Positions 11,820-32,100 of a stretch of DNA of 64,000 nt are shown piece after piece (position 1 is the first letter of the stretch; every line of letters begins with the position of its first letter). The DNA lies in the NCBI GenBank assembly GCA_964478625.1, contig CAYZJH010000006.1:12543-76542 (forward strand). The letters run 5' to 3'. The notes under the pieces are model-generated. The model saw only the letters and a program-made list of their open reading frames with translations. It did not search any database and was not told where the DNA came from. A program made the translations under genes and the position numbers. The DNA is from an uncultured Desulfobacteraceae bacterium. GTDB taxonomy: Bacteria; Desulfobacterota; Desulfobacteria; Desulfobacterales; SKZT01.

Positions 11820-11852
11820 GCCAGGATCAGACAGGAAAATAAACTGATCGAT

Positions 11853-12056
11853 TTGACAATGACACTTTTTTAATTGGTGACCGGCAGCCTTAACCTGACC
11901 CCGATGGGCAAAGCCTGTCCCGGGCATGAACCGGTAGAGCCGGGCACGAAGTGAAGCCTTCAGGAACTATCCATAAGCTGAAACCATCCGGCTGGATGCC
12001 GGCTCCCGGTTTATGCCCGGGACAAGCTTCGCCGGTATGATGTTAAGAACTTTCTC
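11853..12056. repeat. MITE-family composite repeat
   Basis: Contains family modules cctgtcccgggcatgaaccggtagagccgggcacgaagtgaagcc and, inverted, ggctcccggtttatgcccgggacaagcttcgccgg. Boundaries approximate. Confidence 0.7.
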
Positions 12057-12532
12057 CATTTTAAACACATCAATTCAGATGGAAGCTTTTTTCATCCAAA
12101 TTCGCTGATTTTTGTTTTTTAAGAGGTCACAGAGTGCTTATGACAGCTTGTCGGCTAAAAGATCTCACAGATCCCTAACCGGCCATTTTCTTGCTGATCC
12201 TCAGGAGCCAAAGGCTGAGTGCCTGCTTGATGCCAACCAGTCTAACCATATAATATCAATAGAAAATTTCTATCATTATCCCTTATTAACTATTGACAAC
12301 TCAATAGATCAAAGCATAAAACGGAATCGTCCACTAACATGGATTCGGACTGCAAGCAAAAGCAGCCGCAGGGGGAGTTCTGATCTCCATACCGGTATAA
12401 CTCAATTTAGATATTTATAAACGATTCCTTCTTTTTCTAAGGGCAGGGATCGATTCGAGTCTTTTGTAAAATTGATACCATACAAAATAAAATGACGAAG
12501 CCTAACGGTTTCATTGAACCCATTTAAGGCGA

Positions 12533-14608: not shown

Positions 14609-14637
14609 ATAGGGTTTTCGGGATAAGGTGAAGCAAG

Positions 14638-16668
14638 ATGGAATCTATCGATGATCAACCCCTGTACAGCAGCAGAATCATTAATACCTATATCAAATTG
14701 CTTAAAAAGCGATACAGCTTTATTAATGTGGGAGAGCTGTTAAAAAAATCTGAAATGAAATCGTATCAGGTAGAAGATGAAGGTCACTGGTTTACCCAGA
14801 AACAGGTTGATCTTTTTTATGAAAATGTCAAAAATCTCACCCGCAATAAAAAAATAGCCAGAGAAGCCGGCCGTTATGCTGCTTCACCCGAAGCTTTGGG
14901 AATAATGCGTCATTTTATTCTCGGATGCGTGGAGCCTGCGACCGCCTATCTGATGCTTGAAAAAGCGGTTCCCAATTTTACCAAATCCTCCACCTTTAAA
15001 GTGAACCAAATCAATTCTTCAGCAGTGGAAATTATCGTTGAAACCATAAACGGATTCTGTGAAAAACCCTACCAGTGTGAAAACCGAATTGGCTACATCG
15101 AAGCCGTATCGCTGATATTCAACTATCGTTTGCCCAACGTGAAGCATCCTGAATGCATGTTTAACGGAGGAAAAGTCTGCAGATATATCGTGTCATGGAA
15201 AAGATCCCGTTCTGCAATTTGTAAAAGAATCAGAAACGGTGTCACCATCCCGATGCTGACCGTATGTGCGGCAACGGTTTTTATGCTTCCGGATGTCGCA
15301 TTACCCCTTGTATTGAGTTCCCTTTTTATTTTTCTATTGCTTTCCCTTCGTGCCGAATGTTTAAAAAAAAATGAATACCAATTTGCGTTAAACTGTCTGA
15401 TGGGCTCCAGCGACAAACTGTTAAACCAGATCAACATCAATTATAACAATGCCATGCTGGCCAATGAACTTGGCCAGTCCATCAATAAAAAACTGAGTGT
15501 CGAGGGTGTTGCCAACGAAGTCATTCAGGTAATCCAAAAACGGCTGGATTTTGACCGGGGGATCATCTGGATGGTGGATAAAGCCCAAAATAAACTGGTT
15601 TTCCAGTCCGGGTTCGGTTACACGGAAAAACAGCTGGATACGCTGATCAAAACAGAGTTTCATCTGGATAATCCGAAATCTAAAGGTGTTTTCGTCCTTT
15701 GTGTTCTGAAAAAAAGACCTTTTCTGATCAACAATGTGGATGATATCGCAGAATCGCTTTCCCCCAAGAGCCTGGAATATCTGAAACTATTGGAAAGCAC
15801 CTCCTTTATCTGCTGTCCCATTATCTATGAAGGTGAGGCCTTGGGGATTTTTGCAGTGGACAATGTTAAAAACAAAAGACCATTGTATCAAAGCGATATG
15901 AGTCTTCTGATGGGAATCGCTCCGGAAATCGGAATCAGTATCCATAACGCCACCCTGATTGAGTCCAAAGAGCGCCAGTTCAAATCGATCCTGCAAACAC
16001 TCGCTGCCAGCATTGATGCACGTGACCCTCTGACGGCCGGTCATTCCGAACGCGTCACACAATACTCACTTGGTATATGCCAGGAAATGAATCTTGCCGA
16101 AACCTTTTGTGAAACCATCAAAGTGGCCGCATTGCTTCATGACTATGGAAAAATCGGTATCAGTGATTCAATCCTGAAAAAGAAAGAAGCCCTGACCCCC
16201 GAAGAATATCGGCAAATTCAGACCCATGCTGAAAAATCGAGACGAATCCTGGAACAAATTAACTTTGAAGGCATCTACAGTGCGGTTCCGGATATAGCCG
16301 GATCCCATCATGAAAAATTTGATGGATCCGGATATCCCCATAACCTCAAAGGAGATGAGATCCCCTTAGGTTCCAGAATCATTGCCGTTGCTGATGTTTT
16401 CGAAGCCATCACATCCAAACGCCACTATCGGAATCCCATGCCGGAAGATATCGCTTTGGGCATCATTGCCCACCAGAGTGGAAAGCATTTTGACGGCGAA
16501 ATTGTACAGGCCTTTTTCCGGCATTACAATAAATTGAGAACAGGAGAAAACCGCCAGATTGATCTTTCAGTCAACCTGGAAAAAATAAGAAATGGAGGCG
16601 ATTTATCCAAAAGGCTTACGACCTTTGCATATAATCAGCGGAGTATAGGTAAATCTTCCGGGGTCTGA
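14638..16668 (+). CDS. membrane-anchored GAF / HD-GYP c-di-GMP phosphodiesterase with an N-terminal sensor-like domain
   Basis: 676 aa. The N-terminal ~190 aa is an unassigned domain ending HPECMFNGGKVCRYIV. Then a hydrophobic stretch (TIPMLTVCAATVFMLPDVALPLVLSSLFIFLLLSL), a GAF-like region, and HD-GYP motifs HDYGKI and HHEKFDGSGYP. Confidence 0.85.
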   Translation: MESIDDQPLYSSRIINTYIKLLKKRYSFINVGELLKKSEMKSYQVEDEGHWFTQKQVDLFYENVKNLTRNKKIAREAGRYAASPEALGIMRHFILGCVEPATAYLMLEKAVPNFTKSSTFKVNQINSSAVEIIVETINGFCEKPYQCENRIGYIEAVSLIFNYRLPNVKHPECMFNGGKVCRYIVSWKRSRSAICKRIRNGVTIPMLTVCAATVFMLPDVALPLVLSSLFIFLLLSLRAECLKKNEYQFALNCLMGSSDKLLNQININYNNAMLANELGQSINKKLSVEGVANEVIQVIQKRLDFDRGIIWMVDKAQNKLVFQSGFGYTEKQLDTLIKTEFHLDNPKSKGVFVLCVLKKRPFLINNVDDIAESLSPKSLEYLKLLESTSFICCPIIYEGEALGIFAVDNVKNKRPLYQSDMSLLMGIAPEIGISIHNATLIESKERQFKSILQTLAASIDARDPLTAGHSERVTQYSLGICQEMNLAETFCETIKVAALLHDYGKIGISDSILKKKEALTPEEYRQIQTHAEKSRRILEQINFEGIYSAVPDIAGSHHEKFDGSGYPHNLKGDEIPLGSRIIAVADVFEAITSKRHYRNPMPEDIALGIIAHQSGKHFDGEIVQAFFRHYNKLRTGENRQIDLSVNLEKIRNGGDLSKRLTTFAYNQRSIGKSSGV

Positions 16669-17433
16669 AAAAAACCGGTTGAATTCAAAAAGAAATTCAT
16701 CATAACCCTTTTCATATTCATCAAAGCGATAGCCGATTTTTTGAGAGGCCACCTCAATCTTTTTACCCCAATTATAGGCATCCTTCTGGTGTAACTGGCC
16801 GAAAATCAAATGGTGCGCCGTTATTTTCACATCAATATCCATAAACCCCAACCGATAGAGGTGGGAATATAATTTGCGACCCGCAAACGGATCAAAGTCA
16901 CTGCAATTTTCCAGGGATGTCATGAGCGAAAACACTGTCTTTTCAAGTCTTTTCGGAAGACCATAATGACTGAGGCAATTATGGTCCAAATCGATAAGGC
17001 AAAGAATTCCACCCGGCTTCACAAGCTTCGATAGATTGTTTACAATGTCAAAGGATGTTTTTCTGAAATATTCCAACATGAACCTGACCCACACAAAATC
17101 AAACACCCCCAAATCGGTCAGATCTTTTCGGATATCCCTGCAAAAAAATTGTAAACCGTTTTTTCCGTAGGTTCTTTCAGCGTATTCGATTCGATCTTGT
17201 GACAAATCGATACCGACAACCGCTCCATCAGGACTGACAAGATTATGGAGCGCATGGGTGGTTTTTCCTGAACCACAACCGATATCGGCAACCTGCATTC
17301 CTGTCCGGATACCCGCCCATACGGCCTGATCAGCAACAGACCGGCAATCCGTTTTGATGTTCAAGCGGGTTATCTCTTCCATGTTTTCCATGAGATATTC
17401 ATTCTGAAACATTTTGAAAGATCCCTCTACCAT
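16603..17433 (-). CDS. class I SAM-dependent methyltransferase
   Basis: 276 aa; SAM motif I VADIGCGSGKTT and downstream VVGIDLS. The 3' end overlaps the convergent HD-GYP gene by 66 bp. Confidence 0.8.
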   Translation of the reverse strand: MVEGSFKMFQNEYLMENMEEITRLNIKTDCRSVADQAVWAGIRTGMQVADIGCGSGKTTHALHNLVSPDGAVVGIDLSQDRIEYAERTYGKNGLQFFCRDIRKDLTDLGVFDFVWVRFMLEYFRKTSFDIVNNLSKLVKPGGILCLIDLDHNCLSHYGLPKRLEKTVFSLMTSLENCSDFDPFAGRKLYSHLYRLGFMDIDVKITAHHLIFGQLHQKDAYNWGKKIEVASQKIGYRFDEYEKGYDEFLFEFNRFFSDPGRFTYTPLIICKGRKPFG

Positions 17434-17605
17434 TTTGAATTGTCCAATCTCGACTGTGTCATGTATAGGCCATTGCCTCTGTGACTTCCCTAATAATTCG
17501 CTAAATCGTGGCTGAATGAAAACTTTCTGGTATGATTATCCTTTTTCCTGTTTTTCCCCCTTCAGGTAGTGGAAATAAAAGGCTTTTCAATACGGCACTG
17601 ATAAA

Positions 17606-17824
17606 CTTGACAGTCTTAAGTTCCCATAACTCCTTGAAATGAATTATTGCCGATTTTATTGTTTCGTCATTCCGGCGGAAGCCGGTATCCAGTCTCCATC
17701 ATTTCGGCGGAACTTGTCCCGTACTTGAACCGGGAGCCGGTATCCACCCCACGTGAATTCAGGAACTCGGTTTTCCTGGATGCCTGATCAAGTCCGGCAT
17801 GACGGAGAACTTTGTAGTGTCAAG
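17606..17824 (-). mobile_element. 219-bp MITE-family element with a 7-bp target-site duplication
   Basis: TIRs CTTGACAGTCTTAAGTTCCC (left) and GGAGAACTTTGTAGTGTCAAG (right). Hairpin module at 17780-17800. Flanked by identical TGATAAA at 17599-17605 and 17825-17831. Confidence 0.9.
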
Positions 17825-18123
17825 TGATAAACTGTCCGCATTCATATCATGTTCAGAAACCATAATGTTTCCGTTAACCATCTTCCGATCCTGAATCCAA
17901 TACCGATCATTCATCTTTTGACCGGTGTTCATTTTCTTAATCATCCTATGACAAAATCGATAGTACCTGTCAATTATTTGTTTTCATTAATCAATCACCG
18001 AATCATCCGGTACAATTCCCGGCCCTATGGCTACCACAGGATATTGATGTAGCCTCCGGGGATGGGGGGATATATATTGTGGTTGACCCTCGGACAAACT
18101 TTTTTTCCCCATAAAATTTTTCT

Positions 18124-20342: not shown

Positions 20343-20945
20343 TGTGACAGAACAAAGTTCTGAGTCATACCGGGCTTGATCCCTGGGTGAACCTTTTAGG
20401 TAGACAATATCTTTCCAGCTGTCCGAAGTTCACCGTCATGCCGGACTTGATCCGGCATCGGGGAAAAACAGGTACCAGAATTCACCACGATAGCGCTGCG
20501 CTTCTTTTCGTGCCCGGCCTTCGCCCATTGGTAATCAAGTTAAAGTCCTGCCTGATCCCAGCATCAGAGGCCGAAAACGGTTTCCTGCATGTCATTCTAA
20601 GGAAGCGACTCACAACAGCTTGGTTCTTGAAATAAATATTTCCCATTCAGATGGATTGAAACCACGGCGACCGACGAATCTCTATTTGCGAGCCCGCACG
20701 GATCATCGAATCTGACTCAAAGTTTAAACACAAGAAGCCGGGCCGGCATGAAAGATATGTTTTTTGCCGGCCGTTGAGCACTCGCCATCTACCCTTTTAC
20801 GATATCGGCCTCGCCAGAACCACATCCTTTTAATATATGGCCGGAAACCCTGACTTGGCACCAATGTTGCCCTCGCCGGAAAGGCGTTACAATAAAATCG
20901 ATATCGATTAATTCCAAACACTTATGATACCTTATGACTGTCAAG
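20343..20945. mobile_element. ~600-bp compound MITE-family element
   Basis: Left end gtgacagaacaaagttctgag; right end cttatgactgtcaagg. Contains the hairpin module (20438-20458), the agcgctgcgcttc...gtgcccggccttcgcc module, and a ~150-bp module shared (inverted) with 28440..28540 and 57990..58150. The small ORFs inside are repeat-derived. Confidence 0.75.
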
Positions 20946-21349: not shown

Positions 21350-21950
21350 GGATAGTATCAGTCATTTCGGTGAAGCCTTTCCCAAGCACAAAACGTGAGC
21401 CGGTACCCACGTCAATTCAGGAACCTGTTTTTCCCGGATGCCGGATCAAGTCCGGCATGACGGAGAACACCGGGCTGTCAGGTAAATTTATCCGATACGA
21501 AATTTAAACAATAATGATCCATGGTGGGATTGTCAAAGCAGCTTTCAGATTCCGGTGAAATTCAAAATATGAACCTACCGCAAGACCTAATATCACGTTC
21601 AATCACGGCCGGTTCCTGCCGGAATCACCAGAGGAATTGAGTTTGAACTGCTCCCCCCCTTTTAATGAAAAAGGGGGGCGGGGGGACTTAACGTGAACCG
21701 ATACCGTTTTTAAAATCCCCCTGAATCCCCTTTTTTCATTAAAAGGGGGACTTGCGGTGAGTTACTTAGGAGCGTTTCACTCAGCATGCTGAGCCTTAGC
21801 CGACAAGTAATAGGTTTCATGTGGTTCCTGTTCTTTCGTCATTCCGGCGAAGCCTGTCCCGGGCTTGAACCGGGAGCCGGAATCCAGGGATAGTGGTTCT
21901 AAGCCTCGGCCTTCGCCGGAGTGACGGAACCATGTTACTTGTAAAATCAC
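21350..21950. repeat. compound repeat region (MITE modules plus C/G-tract hairpins)
   Basis: Hairpin module at 21438-21458 with a TIR-like ggagaacaccgggctgtcagg. Two oppositely oriented hairpins ccccccttttaatgaaaaagggggg (21653-21678) and ccccttttttcattaaaaggggg (21727-21749). 21771..21942 is the inverted copy of 559..708. Confidence 0.75.
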
Positions 21951-21966: not shown

Positions 21967-23508
21967 TTAAAGCATGTTGATCGTGTCCTTGTATGTTTGA
22001 GCCTGGTTGAACAGCTCATGCCGGGTGGTGTCCTTCATTTTTTCCAGGATTCGGTACATCATGGCCATTCGCGGGTTTTTTGCGAGTTTATCCCGGTGGC
22101 GGTGGAGAAAATCCCAATAGAGACTGTTGAAAGGGCAGCAACGGTCTCCGGTACTGTTATCCGGTCTGTAAAAGCAGTCATTGCAGTAATCACTCAACTT
22201 GCGGATATAATTGGCCGTGGAAACATATGGCTTGGTGGCCACGATGCCTCCATCGGCAAACTGGCTCATTCCCCTGGTGTTGACGATCTCCACCCACTGA
22301 ATCGCATCCATGTAAACGCCCAGGTACCAGGAATCCACCTCGTCGGGATGCACACCGGAAAGCAGAGCGAAATTGCCGGTGACCATCAACCGTTGGATAT
22401 GATGGGCATAGGCATGATTAAGAGACTGAGTAATTGCCTTGTGCATGCAGTTCATGCGGGTTTTGCCGGTCCAGTAATAATCCGGAAGACTCTCTTTGTG
22501 ATCAAAATGGTTCAGAGTTTCATATTCGGGCATGTAAGCCCAGTAAATTCCCCGTACATATTCCCGCCACCCAAGGATCTGACGGACAAATCCCTCAAGT
22601 TGTTCGATGGATATCTTTTGGTCCGATGAGCTTTGAGCTTGTGTAACAGCCGCCTGAATCACTTCCATGGGGTGAAGCATTTTGGTATTAAGAGCAAATG
22701 AAAGCCGCGAATGAAACATGGACCAGCTTTCCGAGGTCATGGCATCCTGGTAGGTGCCGAAATACGGAAGACGTGTCCGGACAAAATCATTCAGCTGTTC
22801 CAAAGCCTGGCTGCGACTCACGGGCCATATGAAATTGCGGGGGTCTATTTCTCCAAAGGTTTTTACACCGCACAGAGAAATCATCTCGACAATATTGGAG
22901 ACATCATTTTTAAAAACCTTTGCCGGAGGAACAGGTACTTCCTTGTCGTAGCGGTTGCGGTTGAGCTGATCGTAATTCCATTTTCCGCCCACAGGTTTAC
23001 CCTCTTTGAGGATTATGTCGTATTTTTTGCGCATATAACGATAAAAAGACTCCATGAGATACCGTTTTTTACCCTTGAAAAACCGTTGGACTTCTTCCCT
23101 GCCGGTCAGAAAATGTTCCGAATCCATTGCCGAGGACCGAATTCTGAGACGTGACACAATCCTTTTTAACTGATTATCCAGCCGGTATTCATCAGGGTAC
23201 AAATACTCGAACCGGGTAATGTTTTCTTTCCTGATTATTTTTAAGAGGTTTTGTTCAATATCCTGTTCGTTTTCCGGGTCATCCAGACGAATATAGATCA
23301 CGCGATGACCCCGGCCCGAAATCTCCCGGGCAAAACGGCGCATGCACGCGAAAAAGCCGGTCACCTTCTGAATATGGTGCTTGACATAATCGGTCTCCTG
23401 ACGCACTTCCATCATGGTGTAGACCGTGTCTTTCCGGCTCGATGCGAACCACCCGTGCAAAATATTGAGCTGATCGCCCAGAATCAGGCGAAGGGTTCTT
23501 TCTGCCAT
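21967..23508 (-). CDS. cryptochrome/photolyase-family protein of the Fe-S CryB/PhrB (FeS-BCP, (6-4)-photolyase-like) class
   Basis: 513 aa. N-terminus LRLILGDQLN is typical of the 'photolyase-related' family. Cys ligand pattern MNCMHKA...DYCNDCFYRPDNSTGDRCCPFNSLYWDF is consistent with a 4Fe-4S cluster. Confidence 0.8.
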   Translation of the reverse strand: MAERTLRLILGDQLNILHGWFASSRKDTVYTMMEVRQETDYVKHHIQKVTGFFACMRRFAREISGRGHRVIYIRLDDPENEQDIEQNLLKIIRKENITRFEYLYPDEYRLDNQLKRIVSRLRIRSSAMDSEHFLTGREEVQRFFKGKKRYLMESFYRYMRKKYDIILKEGKPVGGKWNYDQLNRNRYDKEVPVPPAKVFKNDVSNIVEMISLCGVKTFGEIDPRNFIWPVSRSQALEQLNDFVRTRLPYFGTYQDAMTSESWSMFHSRLSFALNTKMLHPMEVIQAAVTQAQSSSDQKISIEQLEGFVRQILGWREYVRGIYWAYMPEYETLNHFDHKESLPDYYWTGKTRMNCMHKAITQSLNHAYAHHIQRLMVTGNFALLSGVHPDEVDSWYLGVYMDAIQWVEIVNTRGMSQFADGGIVATKPYVSTANYIRKLSDYCNDCFYRPDNSTGDRCCPFNSLYWDFLHRHRDKLAKNPRMAMMYRILEKMKDTTRHELFNQAQTYKDTINML

Positions 23509-23996
23509 GACCGTGCTCCATTTTCTTCAGTAAAAAGTTTCATATTTCACCCCGATTTGAAATCCATCGGCCGGATGCGGGACCATTGAACCAGTTTACC
23601 CAAACCGGTGGAGATGAACCCTTTTATGGCCGGAACGGCATGCTCCGGCTCTCTTTTCAGAATATCACGATGGGAATTATGCCGACAAGGCTGCCGCTGT
23701 TTTTTTCTCAACACCGAACCGGTCATGGAGAATCTTTCCGACGGAGTATATCAACGATCCCATGGATACGTGTAACAACTCACTTACGGAGGTATGCATT
23801 GCTTATAGTCAAAAAGCCTGACAGTCTTTTTGAAAAGATTTAATTTTTAAAACAGACACGATTGGGATAATCTTATCCATCTTGTTTTGATCTGGAAGAA
23901 GCGGTCACTTACCAGGTAACTATGCCAAGTAGTGATGAGCGGCAAAAGCATCGCTTTTGCCCTCTTGTCGAAAAAATTCCCCTGGACCCTTCCGGC

Positions 23997-24130
23997 TAAT
24001 ACCTAATACCTTATACCTTATTCCTTATACCTTATACCTTATACCTTTTCTTCCTGAACACTGAACACTGGAACCCAACTTCCGCCGGGATGTCGGTTTA
24101 AGATCGTGCCCGGATGACAATAAAATGCGC
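23997..24130 (+). repeat. heptamer array (TTATACC-type x7) followed by MITE-family modules
   Basis: taatacc taatacc ttatacc ttattcc ttatacc ttatacc ttatacc (23997-24045), then ttcttcctgaacactgaacactgg...ccgccgggatg...atcgtgcccggatgac. The same arrangement recurs at 28662..28800. Confidence 0.85.
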
Positions 24131-24280
24131 AACGGGATGACGGTATAAGCAAACAGAGTTGCTATTCTGCACCTCTCCTGTCGCTTTTTTGCAACCCTTT
24201 CAGGTTGGACGAAAATGGAATCAATATGTAACATCTCGATTTATTTGATCATACATATTTAGTCTCATTTCTTAAACCCT

Positions 24281-24296
24281 TGGCACATATCCTGCT
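24281..24296 (+). promoter_or_regulatory. sigma54 (-24/-12) promoter candidate
   Basis: TGGCACatatcCTGCT matches TGGCAC-N5-TTGC in spacing and in the GG/GC dinucleotides. It lies 29 nt upstream of ATG 24325, with SD aggagg at 24309-24314. Confidence 0.6.
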
Positions 24297-24324
24297 AACC
24301 TATCGGACAAGGAGGCATAGCCGG

Positions 24325-24930
24325 ATGAAAATCGCACTTACGGCTTGGGAAGACAGAATATCACCTGTTTTTGATGCTGCCAGAACTCTTCTGATCGCCC
24401 ATATCGAAAATGACCGGATTGTCGGCAGACACTATGAGCCTTTTAACCCCGGGGCAGTTGCCCGTTTGGTCGATTTTTTAAAAGCCCTGGAAATTGACGT
24501 GTTCATATGCGGGGCCATTTCCCAAACGCCATCGATCATTATCGAAGCCGGCGGTATCCGACTCATTTCTTTTATCGGAGGCAAAATCGACGACATTCTG
24601 GAATCCTGCACCAAGGACCTCAGGATCGTGGCAAAATTTTCAATGCCGGGGTGCGGAAGGCAGAATCGACATCAACAAAGAAGACGAAATGAATATTTAA
24701 AGGAAAACAAGGAGGTGAGCCATATGCCGAGAGGTGATGGAACAGGCCCCCAGAGACAGGGGGGAGGTCAGAAAGGCAAAGGCGGATGCAAGACCGGCCG
24801 GCGCGGACAGGGCGGTGGAAGCGGTAAGGGTTCCGGCCAGGGCTGCGGTAAAGGCCAGGGAAAAAGCCAGGGTCAGGGCAGAGGACAAAAACCGGGGGGA
24901 AAACAACCCCAAAATCAAAGTGGGGAATAA
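24325..24930 (+). CDS. NifX/NifB-C-terminal-like (FeMo-cofactor-binding fold) protein fused in frame to a DUF5320-like Gly/Gln/Lys-rich tail
   Basis: ATG 24325 with an SD is preferred over the TTG at 24280, which would overlap the promoter. N-terminus MKIALTAWEDRISPVFDAARTLLIA...VFICGAIS. The C-terminus starts MPRGDGTGPQRQGGG (DUF5320 N-terminal motif), preceded by its own SD and ATG at 24724. Confidence 0.75.
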   Translation: MKIALTAWEDRISPVFDAARTLLIAHIENDRIVGRHYEPFNPGAVARLVDFLKALEIDVFICGAISQTPSIIIEAGGIRLISFIGGKIDDILESCTKDLRIVAKFSMPGCGRQNRHQQRRRNEYLKENKEVSHMPRGDGTGPQRQGGGQKGKGGCKTGRRGQGGGSGKGSGQGCGKGQGKSQGQGRGQKPGGKQPQNQSGE

Positions 24931-24962
24931 AACAGGTTTTAATTCAACCAAAGGAGGACACC

Positions 24963-25280
24963 ATGCCTGGATTTGATGGAAACGGACCCATGGGCGAAGG
25001 TCCGATGACAGGAGGCGCCCGGGGATACTGCAATCGGCCGGAAACCGGATATGCAGGTCCGTACGGTTTTCGCTCAATGATGGCCTATGGTCGTGGTTAC
25101 AGAAAAGGCCTTGGCATGCGAAGAGGTTTCGGACGTTCTTGGAAAAGAGGCTTTGGAGCCTATGCACCGGAAAATTCCCTGACAGCCGAAAAAGAACTGG
25201 CCGTGCTTAAAAAGCAGGCGGATTCGGTCAGAGCCACTCTGGATTCAATCACCCAAAGAATCGCCGAAATTGAAAAGTAA
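24963..25280 (+). CDS. DUF5320 family protein
   Basis: 105 aa; MPGFDGNGPMGEGPMTGGARGYC N-terminal motif, RG-rich middle, and a C-terminal coiled-coil-like LAVLKKQADSVRATLDSITQRIAEIEK. Confidence 0.8.
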   Translation: MPGFDGNGPMGEGPMTGGARGYCNRPETGYAGPYGFRSMMAYGRGYRKGLGMRRGFGRSWKRGFGAYAPENSLTAEKELAVLKKQADSVRATLDSITQRIAEIEK

Positions 25281-25300
25281 AAACCCGCGGTTTAGAACCC

Positions 25301-25344
25301 ATCTTTGCGATCATACCGGGTCTTTCCGGTATGATCGCAAAGAT
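25301..25344 (+). promoter_or_regulatory. perfect 19-bp stem / 6-nt loop hairpin between cluster genes
   Basis: atctttgcgatcataccgg (25301-25319) and ccggtatgatcgcaaagat (25326-25344) are exact reverse complements. No U-tract follows. Confidence 0.6.
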
Positions 25345-25392
25345 GTCCCAAAGAGGAGTTGCTCAACCGATCATTATTTAAGGAGAAATTTT

Positions 25393-25647
25393 ATGCCGTT
25401 GTTTGATTATTTATGCGAACATTGCGGAAAAACAACCGAAATTCTAATATCGGGATCCCAGCCTGTTCTGGAATGCAGCAATTGCGGAAGCCGGAATTTA
25501 AAAAAACTGCTCTCTGCTCATTCATCCTATTTTGGAAATTCAAAACATAGAGTTCCAGGGCCGAAAGATACCGCCTGCTGCGGTTCAGCTCCGGGGCAGG
25601 CGTCAGGTTGCGCCGGTCCGGGAAGCTGCTGTGGAAAAAATTTCTAA
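25393..25647 (+). CDS. FmdB-family zinc-ribbon protein (CxxC..CxxC) with a Cys-rich tail
   Basis: 84 aa from ATG 25393 (SD aggaga). MPLFDYLCEHCGKTTE...LECSNCGS is the FmdB/CxxC_CxxC_SSSS pattern. Tail CCGSAPGQASGCAGPGSCCG. Confidence 0.8.
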   Translation: MPLFDYLCEHCGKTTEILISGSQPVLECSNCGSRNLKKLLSAHSSYFGNSKHRVPGPKDTACCGSAPGQASGCAGPGSCCGKNF

Positions 25648-25681
25648 AATCGATAAAGTTTATTGAAAGGGAGGTTCCCTT

Positions 25682-26149
25682 ATGAAAGTAGCCGTCAGTT
25701 CGACAGGAAAAGACCTTAATTCCCAGGTCGATCCCCATTTCGGCAGATGTGGGTTCTATATGATCGTCGAAACAGACGATATGAGTTTTCAAAGCTTTGA
25801 CAATGAGAACAGGGCTTCAAGCGGAGGAGCAGGGATCCAGGCCGCGGGTTTTTTATCCTCCCAGGGGGTCAAGGCCGTTTTAACCGGCAACTGTGGCCCC
25901 AATGCCATGAAAACGTTTTCTGCAGCCGGAGTTCTGGTTTTTACCGGAATTACAGGTACGGTAGCTGAAGCAGTTGAACAGTTTAAGCACGGAAGTCTGA
26001 CTCCTTCCGTTAAAGCAACCGTTTCAGAAAAAACAGGTACGAGGCCATTGGAAACGACAGGAAAGGGTATGGCCAAAGACGGCCTAGGCCGATGTGCGGG
26101 TGGGACCGGTCGCGGATTGGGCGGAGGCCGCAGGATGGGTGGAAGGTAA
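25682..26149 (+). CDS. NifX/NifB-like dinitrogenase FeMo-cofactor-binding-fold protein with a Gly/Arg tail
   Basis: 155 aa; MKVAVSSTGKDLNSQVDPHFGRCGFYMIVE...AVLTGNCGPNA pattern; tail GRCAGGTGRGLGGGRRMGGR. Confidence 0.8.
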   Translation: MKVAVSSTGKDLNSQVDPHFGRCGFYMIVETDDMSFQSFDNENRASSGGAGIQAAGFLSSQGVKAVLTGNCGPNAMKTFSAAGVLVFTGITGTVAEAVEQFKHGSLTPSVKATVSEKTGTRPLETTGKGMAKDGLGRCAGGTGRGLGGGRRMGGR

Positions 26150-26171
26150 CAAAAAAATATGAAAACCGGAT

Positions 26172-27125
26172 TCAGCACTTCCTGGGAACGGATCCCTCTT
26201 CTTTTAAGTGGGCATAAAATTTGGCAAAATCGATTTGATAATTGAAATCATCCCGTTCCCGGAACCGCTGACCTTTGATGTCCATGTTTCGGACCAGAAT
26301 CAATTCTTCGGTAATATTGGATGCCTGAACAATTTTCATTCCCGAAGGGGCCCAAATACCGCTTCCTCCCCAGAAATAGTCCCCGGTGACCCCATGACGT
26401 CCCACCATGTTTGCACCCAGGCTCCACACCTGATTGTAGGCAGCTTTGGAAGCATTCATCAGGTCCCAGAGAAAACCATAGTAATGGTCGCTCATGACAT
26501 TCATGCTCGGATATTCCCGTAGTGCCTCCGACCGCCAGTTCGCCATGGTAACGATGGCATCCACATGGTCACGAAACGCATAATTTCTCGACAGTTCCAC
26601 AAAGCAAAGGTCATAACAGATCAAAAATCCAAACCGCCCCCATTTGGTGTCTATGGTCAGGCGTCTGTCCGACCCGCGCCGGAAATAGGGCTGTTCTAGG
26701 GGAGGAAGAAACACTTTGTCATAAATATATTTTTCGTCCCGGTAATCGATACTTTTGCTCAGAATGAATGTGGAATTATAAAACTCACCGTTTTTTTTAC
26801 GTACGTTATTGTAAAATACATATTCAAGCCCCTTGCCGTCATCGCAAAGGCTTTCACGGATGCGCCCAAGTGTTGGTGCAATGTTTCCATTTTCACCTTC
26901 TTCAAGAAGTTCCTTAACCTCATGACCGTTGTTCTCATTCCAAACATATCCGGTGACAGTAAGCTCTGGAAAGATCGCCATGTTGGCCCCTTTCTCATGA
27001 GCTGTCTGAACCACTTCCTCCATTCGATTCAGATTGGTCTTTATGTCTGATGCCAGGTTCAGATTGGCAATCAGAATGCTCGGACAATCTTCCTTGTCGG
27101 AAAAATCCCTCTCTACCAGTCGCAT
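26172..27125 (-). CDS. carbon-nitrogen hydrolase (nitrilase superfamily) protein
   Basis: 317 aa; Glu in FPELTVTGY, Lys in YDKVFLPP and Cys in FLICYDLCF fit the E-K-C catalytic triad. Confidence 0.85.
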   Translation of the reverse strand: MRLVERDFSDKEDCPSILIANLNLASDIKTNLNRMEEVVQTAHEKGANMAIFPELTVTGYVWNENNGHEVKELLEEGENGNIAPTLGRIRESLCDDGKGLEYVFYNNVRKKNGEFYNSTFILSKSIDYRDEKYIYDKVFLPPLEQPYFRRGSDRRLTIDTKWGRFGFLICYDLCFVELSRNYAFRDHVDAIVTMANWRSEALREYPSMNVMSDHYYGFLWDLMNASKAAYNQVWSLGANMVGRHGVTGDYFWGGSGIWAPSGMKIVQASNITEELILVRNMDIKGQRFRERDDFNYQIDFAKFYAHLKEEGSVPRKC

Positions 27126-27164: not shown

Positions 27165-28070
27165 TTAAAAAGGAACAAAAAATGGATAATTTTTTGTAAA
27201 TTGCAGAAAAGCCCGGGCTGCCGCTGTAATGGGTACTTTTTCCAGTCTGATCATTTTGAATGTTCTTGACCGGGTCATTTTCGGCACACTCAAAATGATG
27301 ACCGATCCTTCCCGAACCTCTTTGAATACGGACCATTTGGAAACCACCGACAGACCAATGCCGTATTTGACCATTTCGATAGCCAGATTCTGACTTTCGG
27401 TGGTCATGACGATAGTGAGTGATCCGGGATCAACGGCCATATTCTGAAAAAAAGTGTCGCCAACCCCCGGCATATCCTTTCCTGAGGAAACAAGCACCAC
27501 AGGGTGTTTGTACAAGTCTTTGGGTAAAATCGGATTTTTTTCGGCCAAAGGATGATTTTCCGGACCGATCAGGACCACCTCGTCTTCGACAAGTTCTTCT
27601 TCAAACCCAAAATTTCCGGGCATCGGCTCCGGTGTTACGGCAAAATCGATACGGGCATTATTCAGGTCCCGAATCATTTTCTCTGGATCCTGAACCAAAA
27701 CATGGAGAACCACATCGGTATAGTTAAGGTTGAATTGATAAAGGAGTTGGGGCAGAAGATCATGCGCAGCCGTGGCATCGGCCCCGATATGCAAAGCCCC
27801 TTTCACCTGATGCAGCAATTCAAGAATGTCTTCGGTTAATTGTGTATATCCGGAAAGAATCCTTTTGGCATGGTGATAGAAAATGGCTCCTGCCGGAGTT
27901 GGTCTGACTGCACGGGTATGCCGGTACACCAGGGGAGTTCCCAAATCCTTTTCAAGACCTTTAATCAGATGACTGATGGCCGACTGGGTCAGGCATTTGG
28001 ATTCAGCAGCCCTGGAAAAACTTTCATGTTCGATGACAGCGCAAAAGACCTGTAATTTGTGATCTTCCAT
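27165..28070 (-). CDS. LysR-family transcriptional regulator
   Basis: 301 aa; N-terminal HTH FSRAAESKCLTQSAISHLIKGLEKDLG; LysR substrate-binding-type C-terminus. Confidence 0.9.
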   Translation of the reverse strand: MEDHKLQVFCAVIEHESFSRAAESKCLTQSAISHLIKGLEKDLGTPLVYRHTRAVRPTPAGAIFYHHAKRILSGYTQLTEDILELLHQVKGALHIGADATAAHDLLPQLLYQFNLNYTDVVLHVLVQDPEKMIRDLNNARIDFAVTPEPMPGNFGFEEELVEDEVVLIGPENHPLAEKNPILPKDLYKHPVVLVSSGKDMPGVGDTFFQNMAVDPGSLTIVMTTESQNLAIEMVKYGIGLSVVSKWSVFKEVREGSVIILSVPKMTRSRTFKMIRLEKVPITAAARAFLQFTKNYPFFVPF

Positions 28071-28119
28071 AAGCCTCTATTCAGTTTTTTTTTAAATTCC
28101 AAAGTAAGCGGCTTTGAAA

Positions 28120-28890
28120 CATAAAAGCTTCCGACGTCTTTCCAGCGGAACCGGTCCCGGGCATGAACCGGGAGCAGGAATCCATTTTTGCAGCTGCACT
28201 CCATGGATAGCGCCTGAAGGCTTCACTTCGTGCCCGGTGTTCTTCGTTATGCCGGACTTGATCCGGCATCCACGAAAAACAGGTGCCTCAATCCGCATGG
28301 ATTCCGGTTTCAACCCATTGGCGCCGGGTTAAGGAATGAAAAAGCTATTTTAATTGTCATTCTGAGGAGGCCAACATGGTACGCGGTTATATGGCACACG
28401 ATCAGTGGCCGACGAAGAATCTATCCTCCATGCCGGCACGGTCTCTTGTGTTTAAACTCCAAGTCAGTACCGATGATCCTTCCGGGCTCGGGCAGATAGA
28501 TTCTTCGGTCGCTAACGCTCCCTCAGAATGACAAGTTCCAGGCAAGCTTCCTGAACCCTGAACACCTAATACCTAAAACCCGATCTTTCATGTTTCCGGT
28601 TCCCGGTTCAGGCCCGGGACAGGCCCCGCCGGAAAGACAGTACACTATCTCCTAAACACGTGAATACCTAAAACCTTAAACCTAATACCTTATACCTTAT
28701 ACCTCACACCTGAAACCTTTCCTTCCTGAACACTGGATCCCGACTCCCGGTTCAGGCCCGGGACAGGCCCCGCCGGGATGACGGCATAAAATCGTGCCGG
28801 GATAGCCATACGATCAGCCGCAATAACGTCAAAATAAACCGAGAGCACCTGATACCAGGCACTTATGAGATTTTTGGACAATCAAGAAAC
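28120..28890. mobile_element. ~770-bp compound of MITE-family modules and heptamer arrays
   Basis: Contains ggtcccgggcatgaaccgggagc, the hairpin module (28249-28269), the gttatatggcac...cttgtgtttaaactccaagtcag module shared with 57945..58030, NNNNACC heptamer runs (about 28555-28580 and 28662-28717), and two ccggttcaggcccgggacaggccccgccgg copies. The right end cacttatgagatttttggacaatc is a degenerate TIR. Confidence 0.75.
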
Positions 28891-28999
28891 AATATACCAT
28901 GAAAATATTTCATGCGAAATAGTAAAAAAATGAATTTGATTTCATAGAGGATGGGATGATAGAAATTTGACCTTGAAAACAAAGAAGGAGACCCGTCTG

Positions 29000-29767
29000 A
29001 TGAGTGGTGATCATAAGAAAATAATCCGGATCGCTTCCACCACCAGTGTCCAGAATTCGGGCCTGATGGATGTTTTGATACCTGAGTATGAAAAAAACAC
29101 CTGTTATCCTGTGTGTGTGGAACTGAAAGCGGTCGGTACCGGAAAAGCGATTCGTCTGGCCAAAAAAGGTCAGGCGGATCTGATTTTTGTCCATGATCCG
29201 TTCAGGGAAGAAAAATTTGTGGCCACGGGTTATGGGGTCAACCGCAGGACTGTCATGTACAATGAATTTTTGATCATCGGGCCTGAAAACGATCCTGCCC
29301 ATATCAGGCAGGCCTCAAGTGCTGAGGAGGCATTTGAAGCCATTGCGAAAAAATCAGCCCCTTTTGTTTCCCGGGGAGATGATTCCGGAACCAACTTCAG
29401 GGAGATGGATTTGTGGGAGGACATCGGAATCAATCCTGTGGGGAAAGGATGGTATTTCGTAACAGGAGCCGGTATGGGGCAAACATTGCTGGCGGCCAAC
29501 AATAAAAAAGCATACACCCTGGTGGACAGCGGCACTTTCCTTTTCTGTCAAAAGCAGATCGGCCTTTTGGAACTTTTCAGAAACGATCCGATCCTGAAAA
29601 ATGATTACAGCCTGATTGCAGTCAATCCTGCGAATGATCCGGAAGTAAACTATCGTGAAAGCATGGATTTTATCGCTTTTGCCACCTCGCCGGAAGGTCA
29701 GAAAGTCATTGCCGGATATACTCGCGACGGTGTTGTCTTATTTAATCCGGCGGCGGTCCCAGTTTGA
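29000..29767 (+). CDS. TupA-like tungstate/molybdate-binding protein paralog without a signal peptide
   Basis: 255 aa from ATG 29000 (SD aaggag). Shares ASTTS..NSGL, GTG.AI and SRGD.SGT motifs with the downstream TupA. The N-terminus MSGDHKKIIRIASTTS has no hydrophobic leader, and neither does the longer TTG-28967 version. Confidence 0.75.
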   Translation: MSGDHKKIIRIASTTSVQNSGLMDVLIPEYEKNTCYPVCVELKAVGTGKAIRLAKKGQADLIFVHDPFREEKFVATGYGVNRRTVMYNEFLIIGPENDPAHIRQASSAEEAFEAIAKKSAPFVSRGDDSGTNFREMDLWEDIGINPVGKGWYFVTGAGMGQTLLAANNKKAYTLVDSGTFLFCQKQIGLLELFRNDPILKNDYSLIAVNPANDPEVNYRESMDFIAFATSPEGQKVIAGYTRDGVVLFNPAAVPV

Positions 29768-29921
29768 CCCCATCCTTCGTACCGTGGAAAGAAATCATAG
29801 GGTTTCCTGAAAAAAAACAGGTCGTCTATTTTTCAAACCACCCGTGTTCAAGGTAAAGGAGTGGTTCCGGACTGTTGGATCGCCTTTTTGAACACCGACC
29901 ACTTTTTTTAAATAAGGAGAA

Positions 29922-30740
29922 ATGAAGATGAGAAGATTTTTCAGGTTTGGAAGTGTTGGATGTTTTCTGATTCTGCTGGTCTCGGGAACGGTTTATGCCG
30001 ACAGTATCATTTGTGCTTCCACCACCAGCACGGAAAATTCCGGATTGTTCGGCCACATTTTGCCGATGTTTGAAAAAGAGACGGGTATCGCAGTCAAAGT
30101 GGTGGCCCGGGGAACCGGTGCAGCCATTGAAATGGGGCGTCGAGGGGATGCGGATGTGGTGTTTGTGCATGCCAGGGAACAGGAATTGCAAGCGGTGGCC
30201 GAAGGGTTTTTTGTGAATCGCCATGATGTCATGTACAATGATTTTGTCATTATCGGTCCACCTGATGACCCGGCTTCCATTAAAGGGGTGGTTTCCGTGG
30301 TGGAAGGTTTTAAAAAAATTGCCGACCAACAGGCTTCCTATGTATCCCGGGGGGATCAATCCGGCACTCACACCAAAGAGCTTGCCATATGGAAACAGGC
30401 GGGTATTCATCCGACCGGACAGAAATGGTACCTGGAGGTGGGCCAGGGAATGGAAAAAACCCAACGGATCGGAAATGAAAAACGGGCCTATGTTCTGACC
30501 GACCGGGGAACCTGGCTGGCCACAAAAGATCAACTGGAAATGGACATTCTTCTGGAAGGCGATCCGGCTCTGTTCAATCAGTATGGCATTATGGCGGTTA
30601 ATCCCGAAAAACATGCTCATGTGAAATATGATCAAGCCATGAAGTTTATCGACTGGATCATTTCCGACAAAGGTCAGGCAGCCATTGACAGCTTCAGGGA
30701 CAAGCAGGGCAATCCCTTGTTTGTCCCAAATGCGAAATAA
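29922..30740 (+). CDS. tupA: periplasmic tungstate-binding protein of the ABC transporter
   Basis: 272 aa; signal peptide MKMRRFFRFGSVGCFLILLVSGTVYA; TupA-type motifs CASTTSTENSGL and SRGDQSGT; followed by permease and ATPase genes. Confidence 0.85.
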   Translation: MKMRRFFRFGSVGCFLILLVSGTVYADSIICASTTSTENSGLFGHILPMFEKETGIAVKVVARGTGAAIEMGRRGDADVVFVHAREQELQAVAEGFFVNRHDVMYNDFVIIGPPDDPASIKGVVSVVEGFKKIADQQASYVSRGDQSGTHTKELAIWKQAGIHPTGQKWYLEVGQGMEKTQRIGNEKRAYVLTDRGTWLATKDQLEMDILLEGDPALFNQYGIMAVNPEKHAHVKYDQAMKFIDWIISDKGQAAIDSFRDKQGNPLFVPNAK

Positions 30741-30748
30741 AAAACACC

Positions 30749-31453
30749 ATGGGATTTGTTATTGAGAGTTTTCACAACGCGTTGATTCTCATTTTCCGTC
30801 TGGATCCGGAACTGTTGAGCATTATGGTGCTGTCGCTAAAAGTATCCGGATCAGCGCTTTTGCTGGCCACCATTTTGGGAGTTCCGCCAGCGGCACTTTT
30901 CGGGTTGACCCGGATACCTCTGAAAGGATTTTTTTTAAACCTGATGAACACCTGCATGGGACTTCCTCCGGTGGTGGTAGGGCTTTTTATCTACCTGATG
31001 CTTTCCCGAAGCGGTCCACTGGGATTTATGGGGCTTCTCTATACGCCGACAGCCATGATTATTGCCCAATTTGTCCTTGCCTGGCCCATTATCGTGGCAC
31101 TATGCCATTCCGCCATCGTAAGCGTGGACCCGGTAATCCGTCAGGCAGCCGTCACCCTGGGAGCGACCCAAAGACAGGCATCCCTTACGGTGATTGTCGA
31201 AGCCCGTTATGGCATTATTTCAGCAATTATTGCGGGATTCGGCCGACTGATGGCCGAGGTGGGAGCCATCTTAATTGTCGGAGGAAACATTGCAGGGTAT
31301 ACAAGGGTCATGACAACAACGATCGCTCTGGAAGCCGACAAGGGAAACTTTGAGCTTGCGCTGGCCCTTGGAATTATTCTACTGGCAATGGCTTTAATGA
31401 TCAACTCGTTGCTGCTTGTTTTCCAGCGAAGAGGATTTGCCGAAAAATCATGA
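30749..31453 (+). CDS. tupB: tungstate ABC transporter permease
   Basis: 234 aa, about 5-6 TM; ABC permease (BPD_transp_1-like) region; 4-bp overlap with the ATPase gene. Confidence 0.85.
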   Translation: MGFVIESFHNALILIFRLDPELLSIMVLSLKVSGSALLLATILGVPPAALFGLTRIPLKGFFLNLMNTCMGLPPVVVGLFIYLMLSRSGPLGFMGLLYTPTAMIIAQFVLAWPIIVALCHSAIVSVDPVIRQAAVTLGATQRQASLTVIVEARYGIISAIIAGFGRLMAEVGAILIVGGNIAGYTRVMTTTIALEADKGNFELALALGIILLAMALMINSLLLVFQRRGFAEKS

Positions 31454-32100
31454 GTATCATTTTAGAAATTGAAAATATCACCAAGACTTATAACGGCAAA
31501 CCGGTTCTCAAAAACTGTTCTTTCAGGTTTGATCGGAAGGGGATTTATGTTTTACGGGGGTCCAACGGCACCGGCAAATCCACATTGCTCAGGATATGTG
31601 CGATGCTTGAGAGGCCTGATGAGGGTACTATCTCATATTATTCAAACGGTGAGCGGTTGCCGAAAAATATCGGCCTTCAAAGACAGATCAGCCTGGTACT
31701 ACCGAAAGTAGGCGTATTTAACCGAAGTGTCGCCGCCAATGTGGCGTATCCCCTTAAATTAAGGCATATTCCACGGGATGAGACAGCCGGGCGGGTGGCT
31801 AAAATACTTGAACTGGTGGGATTGTCCCATAAAAAAAATCAGCCGGCTCTGACCCTTTCAAGCGGTGAGACCCAGCGAATGGGGATGGCCCGGGCTCTGG
31901 TGATCGAACCTGAAATTCTTTTCCTCGATGAACCCACGGCTTCCATTGATGACCAAAATACCCTGATCATTGAGAATCTTTTAAAAACTCTGAAACAAAA
32001 CGGCCGCACAACCATTATCATGACCACCCATGACACAGTACAGGCCGGCCGGGTGGGCGATTATGTCCTGTGGCTCAAAAACGGACAAATCACGACGTAA
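31450..32100 (+). CDS. tupC: tungstate ABC transporter ATP-binding protein
   Basis: 216 aa; Walker A GSNGTGKST, signature LSSGETQR, Walker B ILFLDEP. Confidence 0.88.
   Translation: MSIILEIENITKTYNGKPVLKNCSFRFDRKGIYVLRGSNGTGKSTLLRICAMLERPDEGTISYYSNGERLPKNIGLQRQISLVLPKVGVFNRSVAANVAYPLKLRHIPRDETAGRVAKILELVGLSHKKNQPALTLSSGETQRMGMARALVIEPEILFLDEPTASIDDQNTLIIENLLKTLKQNGRTTIIMTTHDTVQAGRVGDYVLWLKNGQITT

Follow-up and report, generated by a model that had tools for sequence, protein, structure and literature searches.

The locus described here is a cluster of four small, closely spaced genes (g1-g4) that spans 24325-26149 on the plus strand of a 64-kb stretch of DNA from an uncultured Desulfobacteraceae bacterium (contig CAYZJH010000006.1; the whole analysed stretch is referred to below as the window). 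The cluster is probably a small operon under enhancer-dependent control that belongs to the orp (orange protein, ORP) / IssA family of sulfate-reducer-type anaerobes and whose products carry or store iron-sulfur (Fe-S) material. This reading is carried by the domains and folds of the products, by the conservation of promoter and enhancer in other genomes and by the gene neighbourhoods of homologues. Placement in this family is well supported by sequence comparison, and carrying or storing Fe-S or metal-sulfide would be the most economical function. Fe-S storage and distribution in strict anaerobes is poorly understood, and the only characterised case of IssA-type storage comes from a hyperthermophilic archaeon; with its few, tractable proteins and well-defined promoter/enhancer pair, the locus lends itself to tests of bacterial Fe-S storage or carrier hypotheses.

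A first-pass annotation of this DNA had placed four plus-strand genes behind a near-consensus -24/-12 element, and both the genes and the element stand (Table 1). The element TGGCACATATCCTGCT (TGGCAC-N5-CTGCT) begins 44 nt before the g1 ATG, contains GG-N10-GC, follows the TGGCAC-N5-TTGCW consensus for sigma-54 promoters and has the right position relative to a gene. Neither strand of the window holds another match to TGGCAC-N5-YTGCW, where 0.11 would be expected by chance, and the element is conserved before orthologous clusters: in most of those that open with a g1 homologue the motif starts 45-51 nt before the start codon, and in the three closest relatives of the window cluster (L093, L094 and L095) it starts 45-46 nt before it. 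The comparison sample comprised 80 loci of other species, collected with g4 as query, in which homologues of g1-g4 were placed by phmmer, and strong sigma-54 motifs within 200 nt upstream of homologous genes were assessed with a binomial test. Such motifs occur 92 times in 1.84 million strand positions, and 45 of them fall inside the 1.9% of sequence upstream of homologous genes, against 1.7 expected (~26-fold, P ~4e-52), so distributed that 43 of the 80 loci have at least one.

The first-pass annotation had also called for a search for a conserved upstream activator site, and a palindrome, GTYGC-N6-GCRAC, was found. Its single match in the window (0.14 expected), the predicted enhancer GTCGCTTTTTTGCAAC, begins 101 nt upstream of the point where the sigma-54 motif begins and leaves ~86 nt between the two elements, within the ~80-200 nt usual for an activator site. 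The regions upstream of relatives' promoters share this palindrome, roughly aGTCGCAATATTGCGACt, often as two copies 22-27 nt apart. In the loci of other species the palindrome has 11 exact matches, every one of them ~100-150 nt upstream of a homologous cluster's sigma-54 motif, and L093, L094 and L095 carry the palindrome as well. In the window, the degenerate copy GTTGCTATTCTGCACC at 24158 and the site at 24180 form a direct-repeat family (D2) with a spacing of 22 nt. The chance of finding both unique elements in such an arrangement would be about 1e-5. An A+T-rich tract between enhancer and promoter contains a weak candidate for an IHF site, read by eye. Overall, the predicted regulatory architecture is well supported by its conservation, and genome-wide searches of the Desulfobacterales can make use of the resulting candidate regulon motif, in which GTYGC-N6-GCRAC precedes TGGCAY-N5-TTGCT.

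Enhancer-dependent control, as the first-pass annotation had inferred it, therefore gains comparative support from the motif enrichment, the conserved palindrome and the activator genes that adjoin the cluster in relatives. The annotation was also right that the window holds no sigma-54 activator gene: neither a GAFTGA motif nor a deviant Walker A motif occurs in any frame, and none was seen in Pfam scans of most of the larger open reading frames (ORFs). An activator gene is adjacent or near in L014, L075, L076, L084, L009, L011 and L095. The g1 homologues of L014 and L075 are each directly preceded by a gene for a PAS-Sigma54_activat-HTH_8 protein with the sequence CWEVxRSNMCExxC (residues 55-68 and 58-71, respectively), a Cx8Cx3C signature equivalent to the C52/E54/C61/C65 pattern with which OrpR binds a redox-sensing [4Fe-4S] cluster in Desulfovibrio (PMC8359166). 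The activator of L011 is of the response-regulator type and that of L095 is a different PAS protein. From the palindrome and the OrpR-signature activators of L014 and L075 we therefore infer OrpR-type control in trans and expression at low redox potential. The L095 neighbourhood (9928-18000) is of the sulfur-relay / heterodisulfide-reductase type, where the four-gene cluster is followed by the convergent PAS sigma-54 activator and then by TusA, FlpD, HdrA-like, CCG and DsrE-like genes.

Homologues of the four genes occur in three recurrent layouts. In the first (L014, L075), the activator and sigma-54 promoter precede a tailed g1, a DUF5320 gene, a receiver-domain protein, two MinD-type ATPases with ferredoxin inserts that resemble Orp3/4, a NifX-like gene, a metallo-beta-lactamase, a CGGC protein and a g4 homologue; farther along, L014 also has an Mrp-type gene. 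In the second (L056, L057), a sigma-54 promoter is followed by a tailed g4, a tail-less g1-like protein and a 415-residue MrpORP that scores 513 and 518 bits against an NCBIfam equivalog cut-off of 450. The third has g3 directly before g4, a pairing found in about 16 of the 80 loci; in L011 it takes the form of a sigma-54 promoter, DUF5320, Mrp, a pyridine-nucleotide-disulfide oxidoreductase, CGGC, g3, g4 and NifU_N. Other Mrp/NBP35-type proteins are also co-operonic with homologues in other genomes. The metal-cluster module suggested in the first pass is thus backed by comparison, through co-operonic MrpORP, Mrp/NBP35-type, NifU_N, CGGC and MinD/ferredoxin ATPase genes and through the matches of g4 to MTH1175 and ORP described below.

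Table 1. Features of the g1-g4 locus; positions are those of the window.
Feature	Position	Strand	Description
Degenerate second activator site	24158-24173	+	GTTGCTATTCTGCACC; one mismatch to GTYGC-N6-GCRAC
Predicted enhancer palindrome	24180-24195	+	GTCGCTTTTTTGCAAC; only GTYGC-N6-GCRAC match in window
A+T-rich tract with IHF-like site	24219-24231	+	AATCAATATGTAA; 12/13 to WATCAANNNNTTR; read by eye
Predicted sigma-54 (-24/-12) promoter	24281-24296	+	TGGCACatatcCTGCT; single match in window; conserved before orthologous clusters
g1	24325-24930	+	201 residues; NifX-fold domain and disordered Gly/Gln/Lys tail
Putative in-frame internal start in g1	24724-24930	+	Shine-Dalgarno AAGGAGGTG (24709-24717), ATG 24724; predicted 68-residue product
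g2	24963-25280	+	105 residues; DUF5320 protein
Inverted repeat	25300-25345	+	perfect 20 bp, 6-nt loop, between g2 and g3; no U tract after
g3	25393-25647	+	84 residues; FmdB-type zinc ribbon, C-terminal 5-Cys motif
g4	25682-26149	+	155 residues; NifX/ORP/MTH1175-type domain and short Gly/Arg tail; 3'-truncated

The exact order g1-g2-g3-g4 recurs in L093 and L095, where g4 is ~75% identical, so the cluster is conserved in related genomes, and L094 has g1-g2-g4-NifU_N-CGGC. The reduced, ATPase-free form found in the window is thus a conserved one, which shows that the four small proteins can stand alone. Neither MrpORP nor Orp3/Orp4 MinD-type ATPases with two ferredoxin motifs were found in the window. 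With activator, ATPase, Mrp and NifU genes missing there, regulation in trans and client machinery encoded elsewhere have to be assumed. Both regulatory elements recur with unchanged spacing before homologous clusters of many Desulfobacterales genomes, and in several of these OrpR-type activator, Orp3/4-like ATPase, MrpORP, NifU and CGGC genes stand nearby; the locus therefore appears to be a stripped-down satellite of the sigma-54/OrpR-controlled orp system of Desulfovibrio.

The same neighbourhoods feed a different proposal, that the four proteins are structural or positional subunits or adaptors of an ORP-type ATPase complex (with Orp3/Orp4/MrpORP elsewhere in the genome), acting for example in cell division or polar localisation, with the tails and coiled coil serving assembly and not metal storage. 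Homologues of g1 and g4 are co-operonic with MinD-type ATPases and MrpORP in relatives, and in D. vulgaris the ORP complex contains the NifX-fold protein Orp8 and is linked to cell morphology, while MrpORP is polar (PMC6345978, PMC8359166). We regard this as unlikely, though worth serious attention, and it overlaps with the Fe-S carrier or storage reading instead of excluding it. Weighing against it, no ATPase genes adjoin the cluster in the window, L093 or L095, and the conserved cysteines and the Fe-S carrier genes nearby indicate cluster chemistry.

Both NifX-like assignments of the first-pass annotation were correct. The g1 product, whose gene is preceded by the Shine-Dalgarno sequence AAGGAGG at 24309-24315, matches Pfam Nitro_FeMo-Co (PF02579 / IPR003731) over residues 9-94 with 36.8 bits (E 4.9e-9; gathering cut-off 26.3), and g4 matches the same family with 85.3 bits (E 3.7e-24). 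The NifX-fold domain of g1 extends from residue 1 to about 110, and its Cys62 (ICGAIS) and Cys110 (MPGC) are invariant in a 30-sequence alignment. An AlphaFold model of g1, built on 30 homologues, has pLDDT values above 90 for residues 1-100 and below 50 for residues 121-201, which are predicted to be disordered; in Foldseek it agrees with PH0822 (TM 0.78) and also with TM1816, NifX, MJ0327, MTH1175, NafY and ORP. The closest PDB sequence matches of g4 are 1eo1 (MTH1175, 2.2e-18), 1rdu (TM1290, 1.7e-15) and 2wfb (D. gigas ORP, 2.5e-15 over 105 residues), which identifies it as an Orp8-type NifX-fold protein. Cys23 (HFGRC) and Cys71 (GNCGP) of g4 lie in loops where the g4 clade has cysteines and ORP, MTH1175 and TM1290 do not, and a further cysteine, Cys138, lies in the tail.

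As the first-pass annotation stated, the window lacks a nitrogenase context: no nifHDK, nifEN or nifB turned up when most of the larger window ORFs were scanned with Pfam, nor in those related loci that were inspected, and a role in nitrogenase is rejected because these genes are absent.

Downstream of the cluster, at 27165-32100 of the window, a LysR regulator gene is divergent from two tandem genes for TupA-like tungstate-binding proteins, a permease and an ATPase. The best NCBIfam match of the LysR product is 'selenium metabolism-associated LysR' (196 bits, cut-off 250), the TupA matches reach 194 and 243 bits against a cut-off of 400, and the LysR / TupA-like arrangement is conserved in L093. 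This transporter, together with the similarity of g4 to the D. gigas orange protein (2wfb, E 2.5e-15), raises the question of whether the module handles molybdenum or tungsten sulfide species, namely thiomolybdate/thiotungstate heterometal clusters like the Mo-Cu cluster of orange protein, in connection with the neighbouring tungstate-type ATP-binding-cassette transporter. The two TupA-like proteins, permease and ATPase are encoded 2.8 kb downstream, and the g1-g4 / LysR / TupA-like synteny is kept in L093, but only there; no Tup genes lie beside the cluster in L094, L095 or the other layouts. Moreover, it is the divergent LysR gene and not the sigma-54 promoter that faces the Tup genes, the TupA matches are under the equivalog cut-off, and no cysteines take part when orange protein binds its cluster, in contrast to the g4 clade, in which two loops have acquired Cys. 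A molybdenum or tungsten role is accordingly rather improbable, more so than the adaptor role considered above.

What sets the cluster apart is its DUF5320 component and its tails. The first-pass identification of g2 as a DUF5320 protein holds, as PF17253 covers its full length with 77.6 bits (E 1.8e-21) against a gathering cut-off of 27; its N-terminal 70 residues are Gly/Arg/aromatic-rich with one Cys and its C-terminus is a coiled coil. The family comprises 1822 representative clusters at E<=1e-3. Among the relatives listed, the Gly-rich part averages 29% Gly, 12% Arg, 14% aromatic and 10% Pro, and at least one Cys is present in 120 of 120, exactly one in 95 of 120. Most close g4 homologues are 200-220 residues long, many with PF17253 after the NifX domain, and their tails consist of GRCxGGxGRGMG repeats followed by a coiled coil (LxxLKEQAxxLQ). 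NifX-like and DUF5320 genes, whose co-occurrence the first-pass annotation had put forward for checking, do recur together in homologous clusters, often as fusions. DUF5320, a widespread family of ~1800 representative clusters, is therefore a recurrent and often fused partner of NifX-fold proteins that shares their sigma-54/OrpR-type control and has a composition like that described for the IssA tail. A full-text literature search found no paper that discusses its function.

The first-pass annotation had described g1 as a NifX-like protein fused to a DUF5320-like tail, and here the domain stands while the tail falls short. The 76-residue tail (27 Gly, 12 Gln, 10 Lys, 2 Cys; pI 10.6, net charge +10.8) aligns in register with positions 1-60 of the DUF5320 model but scores only 9.7 bits (E 2.5), whereas the L075 orthologue passes with 28.9 bits. 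On the 40-residue g4 tail (14 Gly, 6 Arg, 1 Cys; pI 11.4), which is disordered in the predicted model, DUF5320 gives no match, while the orthologous g4 of L095 passes (38.1 bits) and that of L093 comes close (24.5 bits). The window tails are therefore taken to be degenerate or truncated derivatives of DUF5320 and not members by score. Cys-bearing low-complexity tracts had been claimed for three products; the tail of g3, however, is a conserved Cys motif and not degenerate low complexity.

The g1 tail may also be made on its own. It opens with MPRGDGTGPQ, which copies the DUF5320 N-terminus, and the Met of this sequence is kept in most of the 30 g1 homologues. The Shine-Dalgarno sequence AAGGAGGTG ends 6 nt before the internal ATG, and an SD-like G-run with the internal ATG is kept in all six clusters examined despite changes in the encoded residues (KEV, KGV, KGA). 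This pattern suggests that the predicted 68-residue product (MPRGDGTGPQ..., pI 11.1, net charge +10.5) could be translated separately. Variants of the g1 family in L076 (5983-6678) and L009 (10045-10566) have the NifX-like domain and a Gly/Gln-rich linker fused to a C-terminal zinc ribbon (CxCPKCG...CPKCG), a second, independent tie between the g1-type domain and zinc ribbons.

The composition of these segments could also be read as that of nucleic-acid-binding or condensate-forming (RGG-like) modules, with DUF5320 regulatory and not metal-binding. Conserved DUF5320-DUF134 gene pairs form a second context for the family, at about 7300-8360 in L089-L092, with no NifX-like gene near; DUF134 is a putative DNA-binding family. 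Searched by sequence against the PDB, the g1 tail has a single match, to the RG-rich tail of a ribosomal protein (E 0.003), but it is compositional, and the matches of full-length g1 to RG-rich tails were set aside as compositional bias and superseded by the fold search. Given the Cys in every DUF5320 relative examined, the repeated fusion of DUF5320 to NifX-fold domains and the Fe-S assembly genes inside the same operons, a nucleic-acid role is very unlikely.

The third gene was correctly described in the first pass as an FmdB-type zinc ribbon. The g3 product scores 45.4 bits with TIGR02605 (FmdB; cut-off 31.3, E 6e-12) and 41.7 bits with PF09723 (Zn_ribbon_8; cut-off 34.4, E 1.1e-10), and an N-terminal pair of CxxC motifs (CEHC and CSNC) is joined to a conserved C-terminal 5-Cys motif, DTACCG-x5-Q-x3-CAGPGSCCGK. 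The C-terminal regions of FmdB-family (TIGR02605) proteins resemble those of some bacteriocin precursors, and on that likeness g3 might be the precursor of a Cys-rich modified peptide (RiPP) whose neighbours are unrelated. This scarcely deserves any credence: the tail is strongly conserved along with the zinc ribbon, g3 is consistently paired with g4, and no modification, protease or export genes lie nearby. The precursor reading is rejected because the motif is conserved and processing genes are missing from the surroundings.

Judged against L093, L094 and L095, the window g4 is truncated at its 3' end: the closest orthologues have 215-220 residues and end in a coiled coil, and similarity to L093 stops at ...GGGRRMGGR*, where g4 abuts a convergent CN_hydrolase gene. 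This carbon-nitrogen hydrolase gene (26172-27125) is absent from the syntenic L093 (window 26150-27125 against L093 7665-7746), and its presence coincides with the loss of the last ~60 codons of g4, i.e. the second GRC repeat and the coiled coil. An intergenic element of ~110 nt is present in two direct copies, at 23990-24150 and 28660-28790, and each consists of a heptamer array (ATACCTT x7 at 23999-24047; ACCTTAA-like x7.7 at 28666-28719), followed by TTCCTGAACACTG and then CGGGATGACGGYATAA; the latter occurs at 24086, 24133 and 28774, with 0.06 expected. Because g1-g4 and the CN_hydrolase and LysR genes all lie between the two copies, the pair may be the scar of a recombination or insertion. 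Similar spurious ORF translations (…CRIKSGMTENTG…, …MPDLIRH.KTG…) arise from intergenic sequence at ~20390-20640, 21370-21510 and 28090-28330, and these short repeats look like a dispersed REP-like element.

Between g2 and g3 lies a perfect hairpin (Table 1), for which a 123-nt fold gives -47.3 kcal/mol (z -6.0). It has no second copy in the window, and a dispersed repeat is rejected on that ground; it is a candidate partial terminator, processing or stabilising hairpin. Scans of 23400-26400 with sigma-70 promoter and intrinsic-terminator consensus sequences gave no more matches than in shuffled sequence, and none of the candidates accounts for the g2-g3 gap. Rfam returned a tRNA as the sole match in the window, with no riboswitch near the cluster or the Tup genes. 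A 691-residue ORF at 12533-14608 has no Pfam match at E<=1e-5.

Several points weigh against Fe-S carrying or storage. The DUF5320 model is significant on neither tail of the window, the g4 tail is truncated, and the g1 and g4 tails are without aromatic residues, unlike that of IssA. Activator, ATPase, Mrp and NifU genes are all absent from the window, and for the ORP complex of Desulfovibrio a link to cell division has been proposed (PMC8359166). The identity of the activator, its signal, the metal ligand and the storage or carrier role are inferred.

A model of the Fe-S operon can be proposed on this basis. An OrpR-type activator from outside the window would bind the paired palindromes at 24158-24195 and, with the DNA bent at the A+T-rich / IHF-like tract, would open the predicted promoter (24281-24296). 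The first transcribed base would lie near 24307, ~18 nt ahead of the g1 start codon, and expression, if it follows the example of OrpR in Desulfovibrio, should occur at low redox potential; the transcript would cover g1-g2 and probably g3-g4, with the hairpin at 25300-25345 setting the ratio of the two halves. The two NifX-fold domains would hold Fe-S or related metal-sulfide clusters through C62/C110 of g1 and C23/C71/C138 of g4. The cationic, Gly-rich, disordered, Cys-bearing segments (the tails of g1 and g4 and the free-standing DUF5320 protein) might offset the negative charge of metal-sulfide material, wrap around it and drive oligomerisation, in the manner proposed for the tail of IssA. 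The DUF5320 coiled coil could multimerise g2, and the Cys-rich zinc ribbon g3 may be a further small metal-binding partner. Together, the four proteins would serve to buffer or store Fe-S units, or pass them on to Mrp/NifU/Orp machinery whose genes lie elsewhere in the genome.

A bolder and doubtful extension is that DUF5320 and the Cys-bearing Gly/Arg(Gln) tails fused to NifX domains are the bacterial counterpart of the IssA tail and bind a polymeric, thioferrate-like iron-sulfide phase. The Desulfobacterales would then possess a redox-regulated (OrpR/sigma-54) Fe-S storage body, and the internal start of g1 would free a 68-residue peptide that tunes the ratio of tail to domain.

The closest known systems include the orp operons (Fievet 2011). 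In D. vulgaris Hildenborough, orp1 and orp2 depend on sigma-54, OrpR and IHF and encode Orp3, Orp4, Orp5, Orp8 (NifX-fold, orange protein) and Orp9 (MrpORP) (PMC3897727, PMC8359166, PMC6345978). Both the orp operons and the window locus have a sigma-54 promoter with an upstream imperfect palindrome, and the D. vulgaris OrpR site GGGCGYRTTTTGCGCCC has the layout xxCGC / A+T spacer / GCGxx, as does GTCGC-TTTTTT-GCAAC in the window, although the spacer is 6 nt in the window and 5 nt in D. vulgaris. An IHF-like tract lies between enhancer and promoter, as in Desulfovibrio orp promoters (PMC3897727), and small NifX-fold proteins of the Orp8/ORP type are found outside a nitrogenase context in both. 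Relatives of the window locus, like orp, have an adjoining OrpR-type activator and co-operonic Orp3/4-like ATPases and true MrpORP, whereas the window cluster itself has no activator, ATPases or MrpORP. The window NifX-fold proteins have extra cysteines and cationic Gly-rich tails, both of which D. gigas ORP lacks, and neither DUF5320 nor an FmdB ribbon is among the ORP components given in the literature consulted. With regard to Orp5 (DVU2105 / Dde_3197), a small [2Fe-2S] protein, no named Desulfovibrio homologue was among the best 120 matches of the g1 domain.

Within the fold family, HFGRC of g4 aligns with the CxHFGHCE motif of the Di-Nase (NifX-like) domain of MrpORP/Orp9, and this HFGx-cysteine motif has been proposed to bind a [3Fe-4S] cluster (PMC6345978). 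Both the Di-Nase domain and g4 have three conserved Cys, but the third in g4 is in the tail and not in a CDH motif, and neither g1 nor g4 has MrpORP's P-loop NTPase domain. Their partial NCBIfam matches to the Di-Nase region, 24 and 35 bits, are far below the cut-off of 450. NifX, NafY and the NifB C-terminal domain belong to the same Pfam family and share the fold (NifX 9ian and NafY 1p90 in Foldseek), yet the window sequences are closer to the MTH1175/ORP subgroup than to nitrogenase NifX/NafY.

IssA of P. furiosus, which stores iron-sulfur as thioferrate, has an IPR003731 domain and a cationic, Gly/aromatic-rich, single-Cys tail proposed to wrap thioferrate, and an uncharacterised non-thermophilic 'IssX' clade was flagged in the same study (Vaccaro 2017, PMC5524996). 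IssA is defined operationally by an IPR003731 domain, pI >= 9, <5 Cys and >= 20% Gly in the last 40 residues, and IssX by the same domain with pI >= 8, <10 Cys and >= 10% Gly in the last 40 residues (PMC5524996). By these measures g4 (pI 9.37, 3 Cys, 35% Gly) classes with IssA and g1 (pI 9.89, 5 Cys, 40% Gly) with IssX, missing IssA by one Cys, and the best PDB match of g4, MTH1175, is among the IssA-type proteins (PMC5524996). The window NifX-fold proteins share with IssA the order of an IPR003731 / NifX-fold domain and then a disordered, cationic, Gly-rich, Cys-bearing tail. The tails of g1 and g4 have no aromatic residues; an IssA-like content of aromatics and proline is found only in the free-standing DUF5320 protein (11 aromatics in the 70-residue Gly-rich part of g2), and the Gly-rich part of DUF5320 proteins parallels the IssA tail as described in print. 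Unlike IssA, the window globular domains carry conserved cysteines, and IssA comes from Pyrococcus while the window host is bacterial, probably mesophilic, and would use sigma-54 for control. The window tails resemble the cationic tail of IssA. The pattern seen here was already described for the Desulfovibrio orp operons and for IssA, so the locus is less isolated than it first appeared. To these known systems the present analysis adds the DUF5320 link, the Cys-bearing tails, an ATPase-free four-gene form and a candidate enhancer motif.

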